The notes: generated from the sequence alone by a model not told the origin. A stretch of 64,000 nt of DNA from Clostridia bacterium (GCA_017549425.1 JAFYUV010000017.1:6384-70383), one strand, 5' to 3'. Numbered from the stretch's first letter, positions 47,653 to 47,880 are shown. A program made the numbers and translations.

Positions 47653-47716
47653 GTAATATCTGATTGACAAAAGTTGGAGTTTATTATAATATAAACATAA
47701 GTGAAGGAGAAGACAA

Positions 47717-47761
47717 ATGAAAATATTGGTAAAAACTGTAAATGGGGGGGGGGCGAAATAG
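47717..47761 (+). other. 14-codon uORF (MKILVKTVNGGGAK) containing a G10 homopolymer (47744-47753)
   Basis: RBS GAAGGAG, ATG 47717; promoter-like TTGACA (about 47663) and TATAAT (about 47685) upstream. Confidence 0.4.
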
Positions 47762-47870
47762 CCCTTTAAACACACGAGAGAAAGACTATTTGTAAATAAC
47801 CTTAGTTTTATATATTCGGTTATATAGAACTAAGGTTAAAGGTCTTCTCTAGAAACTGAAAAATAAAAGG
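47762..47870 (+). promoter_or_regulatory. structured 5' leader: nested inverted repeats (outer AGAGAAAGAC/GTCTTCTCT, inner AACCTTAGTTTTATATA/TATATAGAACTAAGGTT)
   Basis: read directly; precedes RBS AAGGAGG of 47881 gene. Confidence 0.4.
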
Positions 47871-47880
47871 AGGAATAAAG

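Follow-up and report, generated by a model that had tools for sequence, protein, structure and literature searches.

The question raised by this locus is why ten consecutive G should stand in the leader of a membrane protein gene in an AT-rich clostridial genome, and whether they act there as a switch. The run was read at positions 47744-47753 of a 64,000 nt stretch of Clostridia bacterium DNA (GCA_017549425.1, JAFYUV010000017.1:6384-70383); this whole stretch is called the window here. An initial annotation, made from the sequence alone, had described the run as extraordinary for such a genome, and counting agreed with it: besides G10 the window has no G or C run that reaches 8, the runners-up are two G7 runs, at 4388 and 62660, and 0.0015 runs of 10 or more were expected under an iid model (29% GC, 17.7% G). 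The tract is most likely a random on/off phase-variation switch. It is probably a slipped-strand site carried by a portable promoter and structured-leader module (~200 nt) that drives accessory genes for membrane-anchored surface proteins.

Length variation of the poly-G tract

Six further independent assemblies of the window locus were obtained by exact-protein look-ups. All six matched the window perfectly over the 3.6-7.1 kb compared, save for the tract, which was G11 in two of them (ERZ27256879 and SRR12529252) and G10 in the other four, as in the window. The G11 contigs L001/L031 were aligned with the window over 7125 and 6980 nt, and L003/L032 (also G11) over 4291 and 5069 nt, in each case with no mismatches and with a single gap, located at the tract. 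ERZ28019117 represents a more divergent strain, which differs from the window upstream of ~47250, is identical to it over ~47250-53617 and carries G10. A second copy of the leader (copy 2, at locus 2; described below) was found with tracts of G10, G8 and G10 in three samples with identical flanks. The tract is uninterrupted in both copies, despite ~15% divergence at other positions. The tract is real, and its length differs between otherwise identical genomes. The earlier proposal of a slipped-strand site was strengthened by G10 versus G11 as the sole difference in up to 7.1 kb and by G8 versus G10 in copy 2; tract length does vary across strains at both loci.

All tract lengths were taken from consensus assemblies, and G10 versus G11 could in principle reflect homopolymer miscalls. 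The initial annotation had itself allowed for an artefact of sequencing or assembly, by which the true tract would be fixed or shorter and both G10/G11 and G8/G10 would be homopolymer errors. Illumina consensus calling is error-prone at G runs of 10 or more, and three Logan contigs end 28 nt from the tract. An artefact is nevertheless very improbable: at least ten G were present at locus 1 in all seven independent assemblies, which came from at least three assemblers; the paralogous locus has the same tract, with a 2 nt difference between samples; in relatives the tracts are upstream of the homologous genes (−41 to −44 relative to the start codon) and not in a leader; and no other difference occurs across up to 7 kb. 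The run at 47744-47753 (plus strand) is real and most likely a hypermutable contingency tract.

The three Logan contigs, all from one project (L003/L032, L004/L033 and L005), begin at 47716, upstream of the locus 1 tract and one base before the ATG of the leader ORF. Heterogeneity of tract length alone would break a k=31 graph ~20 nt upstream of the tract, and copy 2 has only 16 nt in common with the window at the contig start. A third sequence with the same 30-mer (AATGAAAATATTGGTAAAAACTGTAAATGG), or a coverage gap, is a possible source of these contig ends. For metagenomics it is relevant that such tracts differ between assemblies of the same strain and that contigs in three samples end near the one at locus 1.

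Promoter, leader ORF and cassette

The gene order is mecA (minus strand), rpsF, ssb, rpsR, a terminator, a unit of promoter, leader, 374-aa gene and terminator, and then a further promoter, gdpP, rplI and dnaB. Upstream, the unit is bounded by the rpsR terminator (47606-47651), which was identified by a terminator scan as a perfect 20-bp hairpin between A and T runs and which could, because A-runs and T-runs flank it, stop transcription in both directions. The TTGACA/TATAAT-like hexamers noted earlier were recovered by a promoter scan as a sigma-70-type promoter on the plus strand (TTGACA-17-TAATAT, 47664-47692; 10/12), with an inferred transcription start near 47699. The cargo of the cassette is the gene for a 374-aa mosaic protein (47881-49005, plus strand), which is membrane-anchored by N-terminal transmembrane helices, in keeping with its first description as a membrane protein. 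Its SD sequence (GGAGG, 47869-47873, plus strand) lies outside the module shared with copy 2 and is predicted to be always accessible. The cassette is ended by an intrinsic terminator (49016-49031, plus strand; terminator scan), 3' of which lies a conserved gdpP promoter (49085-49113) that is kept in the cassette-less L029.

The tract lies within a leader ORF (uORF) of 14 codons on the plus strand (MKILVKTVNGGGAK; 47717-47761). In the G10 allele it runs from an ATG at 47717 to a TAG at 47759-61, and its SD (AGGAG, 47705-09) is located seven nt 5' of the ATG, so the RBS-equipped 14-codon uORF of the initial annotation is indeed present. The idea that tract length would shift its stop also held, three stop positions (47759, 47767 and 47793) being read from the sequence. 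With G11 or G8 the uORF ends at a TAA (47767-69) inside the conserved CCCUUUAAA; with G9 or G12 it ends two bases before the 18-bp hairpin, at a TAA (47793-95) that belongs to the conserved UGUAAAUA and lies at the 3' end of helix P3 (see below). Of these frames, the alleles observed at locus 1 represent the first and second, those at locus 2 the second and third.

Other readings of the tract region were considered. A minus-strand ORF through the C run (47620-47775, 51 aa) was rejected; it runs into both the terminator and the promoter, and has not been preserved in copy 2. The possibility that some tract length fuses uORF and main ORF was discarded, as all three frames end at or before 47795. 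By inspection, no second promoter with the tract in its spacer fits on either strand of the window, and an antisense TTTACA-18-TATCAT in copy 2 was dismissed as a promoter, not being conserved in copy 1.

In the closest genomes found via GdpP (74% and 62% identity) gdpP follows directly after rpsR, as it does in a metagenome contig with an identical RpsR. The cassette is absent between rpsR and gdpP in L006, L013 and L029, and other relatives have unrelated genes at this site. These comparisons identify the unit of promoter, leader, gene and terminator as an accessory cassette at a site of variable content. No leader homologues were detected near gdpP in 21 related genomes by blastn-short and nhmmer.

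The rpsR-gdpP interval (47602-49137 in the window) is an accessory-gene hotspot in the loci compared (L006, L008-L016, L018-L020 and L029). It is empty in L006, L013 and L029, and in the window it contains the poly-G cassette. Judged by eye only, its occupants elsewhere include a 172-175-aa protein in L008 and L016, a conserved 358-aa protein in L009-L012, proteins with pilin-like N-termini in L014 and L015, and a multi-pass membrane protein in the distant relatives L018 and L019; the last sits at what we take to be the position of yybS in Bacillus.

The 374-aa protein is entered at NCBI as a "DUF4190 domain-containing protein" of a Clostridia bacterium MAG, and has no Pfam match. In an exhaustive HMMER search its residues 1-168 matched stand-alone DUF4190-type proteins of ~170 aa, the best of which (P0002) has 59% identity and occurs in the same samples. 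Structure prediction from the single sequence gave a pLDDT of 39.6 with only N-terminal helices visible, a quality insufficient for a fold search. A further paralogue, P0010, has a C-terminal end that is also similar to residues 83-168 (51%), including a common KITVSVPG motif; the mosaic was compared over 47881-49005 of the window, 3001-4518 of L043 and 2501-3001 of L034. Small DUF4190-type genes adjoin large repeat-protein genes in two loci.

Copy 2 of the promoter and leader is located at ~3066-3268 of L034, in the same MAG (IKV94 locus tags); the proteins at both loci carry the accession series of one MAG. By inspection it lies just downstream of P0002, after a predicted terminator hairpin, and it precedes the gene for a 523-aa N-terminally anchored protein (L034 3287-4858), so that the downstream proteins of both copies have N-terminal membrane anchors. 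The copies are ~85% identical from the −35 box, where the homology starts, to ~15 nt past GUCUUCUCU (the 3' strand of helix P1). The homology does not reach the RBS of either gene, and the genes that follow the two copies are unrelated to each other. The copy 2 promoter scored 11/12 in the promoter scan. The ATG and SD of the uORF are invariant in copy 2, whereas a 4-nt difference in the ATG-to-tract segment changes both the peptide and the frame with respect to the tract.

The 523-aa protein is composed of an N-terminal anchor, an N/D/Q-rich linker and two tandem repeats of ~225 aa. Two Logan contigs end inside the first repeat, the repeats being alike enough for this (e.g., the identical KLLTIFENLELSDAQKVKTD).

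P0010, the third paralogue (505 aa), is encoded downstream of rplQ. Its promoter, SD and ATG are homologous to those of the module, the ATG there being the true gene start (MKKGN...), and it has no tract and no leader. Since the uORF SD and ATG are homologous to this real start, the initiation signals of the uORF descend from a working gene start. A MITE-like insertion bounded by the P1 strands was also considered for the module, but its left "repeat" is part of the ancestral SD. No further copies were detected in the window, the 65 family loci (see below) or the other paralogue loci by an nhmmer profile of the two copies; the exact 36-mer of the big hairpin had no matches in JGI metagenomes. 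Two conserved module motifs had no matches in viral contigs, and there is thus no sign of a phage origin. As judged from the alignment of the two copies, the promoter and leader are a portable duplicated module of ~200 nt, with the tract kept and variable in both.

Leader RNA structure and tract length

The leader RNA (47700-47857, plus strand) is predicted to fold into a closed four-helix junction, with the same architecture in both copies. The copy 1 fold had an energy of −47.9 kcal/mol (z = −6.0), and none of 200 shuffles folded as well, in agreement with the earlier description of a highly structured leader; copy 2 gave z = −5.9. The helices, all on the plus strand, are P0 (47700-02/47855-57), P1 (47706-14/47842-50), P2 (47748-54/47761-67), in which the 3' part of the G tract is paired with GCCCUUU, P3 (47774-80/47786-93) and P4 (47797-814/47821-38), the hairpin of the inner inverted repeat. 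In the minimum-energy (MFE) fold, GUCUUCUCU (47842-50) pairs with the uORF SD region GGAGAAGAC (47706-14), which closes the junction and sequesters the SD. The initial annotation had proposed nested inverted repeats. Both repeats exist, the inner one with 18 and not 17 bp; the outer pairing is not the preferred one, however, its 3' strand pairing best with the uORF SD. This outer repeat, GAGAAAGAC (47778-86, plus strand) with GTCTTCTC (47842-49), is a weaker alternative of 8 bp and one bulge, and arises in a constrained fold when the uORF initiation region is blocked; GAGAAAGAC is invariant in copy 2.

Alignment of the two copies comprised 44 pairs, with 98.3% of cells paired. Two two-sided compensatory changes were found (A:U to U:A in P3 and A:U to G:C in P4), together with two wobble-compatible single changes and one lost pair, the closing pair of the G hairpin. 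The observed score, which derives from two independent sequences, was reached by 29 of 500 shuffles. The compensatory changes are suggestive of the leader fold, and the one in P3 would favour P3 over the GAGAAAGAC pairing at equilibrium. For the uORF SD, the equilibrium prediction is a mostly paired state (0.18 unpaired). This SD overlaps a P1 strand, and with two module copies the conservation of the uORF is inseparable from that of the P1 strand. The Rfam assignment of the leader that had been thought possible was not obtained: Rfam 15 gave no matches in the whole window at gathering thresholds, and at E ≤10 the leader gave weak matches only, none of which came near its gathering score and most of which fell on the rpsR terminator hairpin, the source of all the top spurious matches.

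The MFE architecture was the same for G7-G14, and the fold energy shifted by ≤0.7 kcal/mol. The main SD was predicted to be 0.98 unpaired at every length in this range, and 0.92-0.98 unpaired whichever site, the uORF start or one of the three stops, carried a ribosome footprint. A tract-length-dependent RNA switch was rejected on these grounds. No intrinsic terminator was found between promoter and gene in the window (47693-47880) or in copy 2, the leader hairpins being followed by AGAAACUGAAAAA and no U-run. All three frames stop at least 85 nt before the main ATG, and translational coupling is therefore excluded. No output step is identifiable in the sequence, with no terminator and a main RBS that is never sequestered; control at initiation on the main RBS and control by intrinsic termination are both unlikely.

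These results bear most directly on the attenuator-like switch acting through the downstream hairpins that the initial annotation had envisaged. In a classical leader-peptide attenuator of the trp/erm type, the position of the ribosome on the uORF would select between antiterminator and terminator, or between an RBS-masking and an open form. The leader ORF has an SD, GUCUUCUCU has two mutually exclusive partners and the uORF stop moves with tract length, as such a device would have it. With no hairpin and U-run in either copy, a main SD that stayed open under every constraint tried and a fold independent of tract length, neither classical attenuation nor RBS masking is supported; the P3 compensatory change, moreover, supports P3 and not the alternative outer helix. 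This kind of control is considered very unlikely. A structured cis-acting RNA, which would be either an mRNA-stabilising 5' junction or a ligand- or protein-binding element, accommodates more of the data: the G run would be a P2 strand, the variation in its length tolerated noise, and the uORF a relic silenced by P1. It is consistent with the conservation of the four-helix junction between copies with compensatory changes, with z ~ −6 in both folds, with the covering of the uORF SD by P1, with the indifference of the fold to tract length and with a uORF peptide that is not conserved. A neutral G10 should, however, decay by interruptions, whereas it is intact in both ~15%-diverged copies; P2 requires only 6-7 G; no Rfam family matches; and homologous genes of other species have promoter poly-G without such an RNA, which points to selection for the tract itself. 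On balance, a purely structural role is rather unlikely.

Pairing of the G run with another RNA, as in Helicobacter pylori tlpB/RepG, was also weighed; either a C/U-rich trans-acting sRNA or the CUUCUCU/CCCUUU of the leader would bind the run in a length-dependent way and tune expression gradually. There is precedent for a small RNA that targets a G-repeat in a 5' leader (PMC8295292). Both copies have kept the CCCUUU that closely follows the tract and, by inspection, G-C and G-U pairs could join the C/U-rich 3' strand of P1 to G runs. Such tuning is nonetheless quite improbable, given predicted energies that vary by ≤0.7 kcal/mol with tract length and no candidate sRNA in the 64-kb window, where the sole C6 run (17547) is not in an sRNA-like setting.

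Since a one-base change leaves the predicted fold almost unaffected and changes the frame fully, a frame-dependent co-transcriptional effect is favoured, and we infer an influence of the translating ribosome on the fate of the leader RNA as the preferred mechanism. Each one-base change of the tract moves the leader ORF among three frames. The ORF is presumably translated, its SD and ATG having descended from a genuine gene start, and a first ribosome can load because the uORF SD emerges ~130 nt before its P1 partner. As peptide and frame differ between the copies, it would be the act of translation and not its product that counts, if the uORF matters. The distance travelled by the first co-transcriptional ribosome would then decide the fate of the leader RNA. 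Candidate steps are how long the C-containing stretch 3' of the tract lies open to Rho or RNases, and when P1 closes over the uORF SD; that stretch is short for a Rho loading site. The output would be Rho-dependent termination or RNase attack, which would set the amount of full-length surface-protein mRNA.

In a broader formulation, which is put forward tentatively and may well prove too far-reaching, the unit would be a portable phase-variable leader in which the homopolymer sets the frame of the leader ORF and the travel of the leading ribosome decides the fate of the transcript. It would be a heritable stochastic counterpart of attenuation, movable before any gene without touching the coding sequence or RBS, and its origin would lie in a lineage in whose relatives the tract is employed within the promoter spacer. 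Should the frame readout be true, it would represent a compact, transplantable stochastic switch and a new coupling of a repeat tract to expression.

Related tracts and known phase-variation systems

A metagenome search with the 523-aa family alignment yielded 65 loci, in four of which (L093, L095, L097 and L098; 27-29% GC) a G tract precedes the start codon by 41-44 nt. By inspection, L093 (G11) and L095 (G10) have the arrangement TTGACA-AAAAGACTC-Gn-TATACT, with spacers of 20 and 19 nt; these look like textbook promoter-spacer phase switches, apparently in a low or off state in both assemblies. The tract-promoter regions are at 886-917 of L093 and ~1022-1052 of L095. L097 has G9 at −44 (1334-1342) and L098 has G7 at −42 (1258-1264), where a TTTACA-18-GATATT match of the promoter scan spans the tract. 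A survey of 428 kb of AT-rich DNA, made up of the window and the non-redundant loci, contained five G/C runs of 8 or more, made up of tracts of the relatives and those of the two module copies, all of them just upstream of genes of these surface-protein families. The spacer tracts of the relatives appear analogous to the window tract, with homology not demonstrable. As far as the sequences tell, poly-G tracts have been recruited repeatedly before this group of surface-protein genes, the pattern by which contingency loci are recognised.

Contingency loci built on repeat tracts characterise a few host-adapted pathogens (Campylobacter, Neisseria, Haemophilus, Helicobacter and Treponema), and the phase variation reported from gut Firmicutes has mostly been of the DNA-inversion type. 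Surface proteins that vary in phase through homopolymeric tracts (SSR) are known from the poly-G phasome of Campylobacter jejuni, from Neisseria hmbR/hpuA/pilC and from Helicobacter (PMC6321876, PMC3786947, PMC2823697). The present tracts are like these loci in being uninterrupted (G8-11) in an AT-rich genome, in differing by 1-2 nt between near-identical genomes, in occurring at several loci per genome before accessory surface-protein genes, and in acting on a reading frame. Unlike in those loci, it is a leader ORF of 14-25 codons whose frame is hit; the structural gene is served by an RBS of its own and is intact at all lengths, and the host is an uncultured commensal Clostridia lineage. No example of SSR phase variation in uncultured commensal Clostridia was found in the literature searched, and the clostridial switches described, in Clostridioides difficile, are DNA inversions (PMC7446863). 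The tract belongs to known SSR phase variation, but in an unusual position (the leader ORF) and in an unusual host.

Phase variation by poly-G or poly-C in a promoter spacer has been described for Treponema pallidum tp0126 and tprE/G/J/L and for Neisseria porA and opc (PMC7864442). The loci described here likewise have poly-G tracts of 7-11 upstream of surface-protein paralogues, and those of L093, L095 and L098 lie between −35 and −10. The window tract, in contrast, begins 52 nt downstream of the −10 box, and with a fixed 17-nt spacer and a tract ~45 nt downstream of the inferred transcription start, control by spacing cannot apply in the window. The G-repeat in the H. pylori tlpB leader that is targeted by the sRNA RepG (PMC8295292) is similar as a variable repeat in an mRNA 5' leader that acts after transcription initiation; it differs from the tract studied here, which lies within a translatable uORF and a conserved hairpin, has length-independent predicted pairing energies and has no known partner sRNA. 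The flagellar switch of C. difficile acts through Rho in the flgB 5' leader (PMC7446863) and is comparable as a heritable, post-initiation switch in a long 5' leader without an intrinsic terminator, but it is a RecV-inverted DNA segment and not a repeat tract, and a part for Rho in the present leader is only inferred. The short SD-equipped leader ORF before conserved helices with a common strand recalls the attenuation of trp, his, ermC and cat. Unlike those systems, the leader has no terminator and no RBS-sequestering helix, and its input would be a heritable change of frame and not ribosome stalling by a metabolite or antibiotic.

Poly-G contingency tracts are present at two or more loci of an AT-rich commensal lineage and before homologous genes in its relatives, which suggests stochastic surface variation by repeat slippage in at least this uncultured group of gut Clostridia. 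Elsewhere in the window, just upstream of mecA (43307-45766), three consecutive genes encode proteins of 530, 164 and 131 aa with hydrophobic N-terminal segments, and may constitute another surface or secretion-related accessory cluster.
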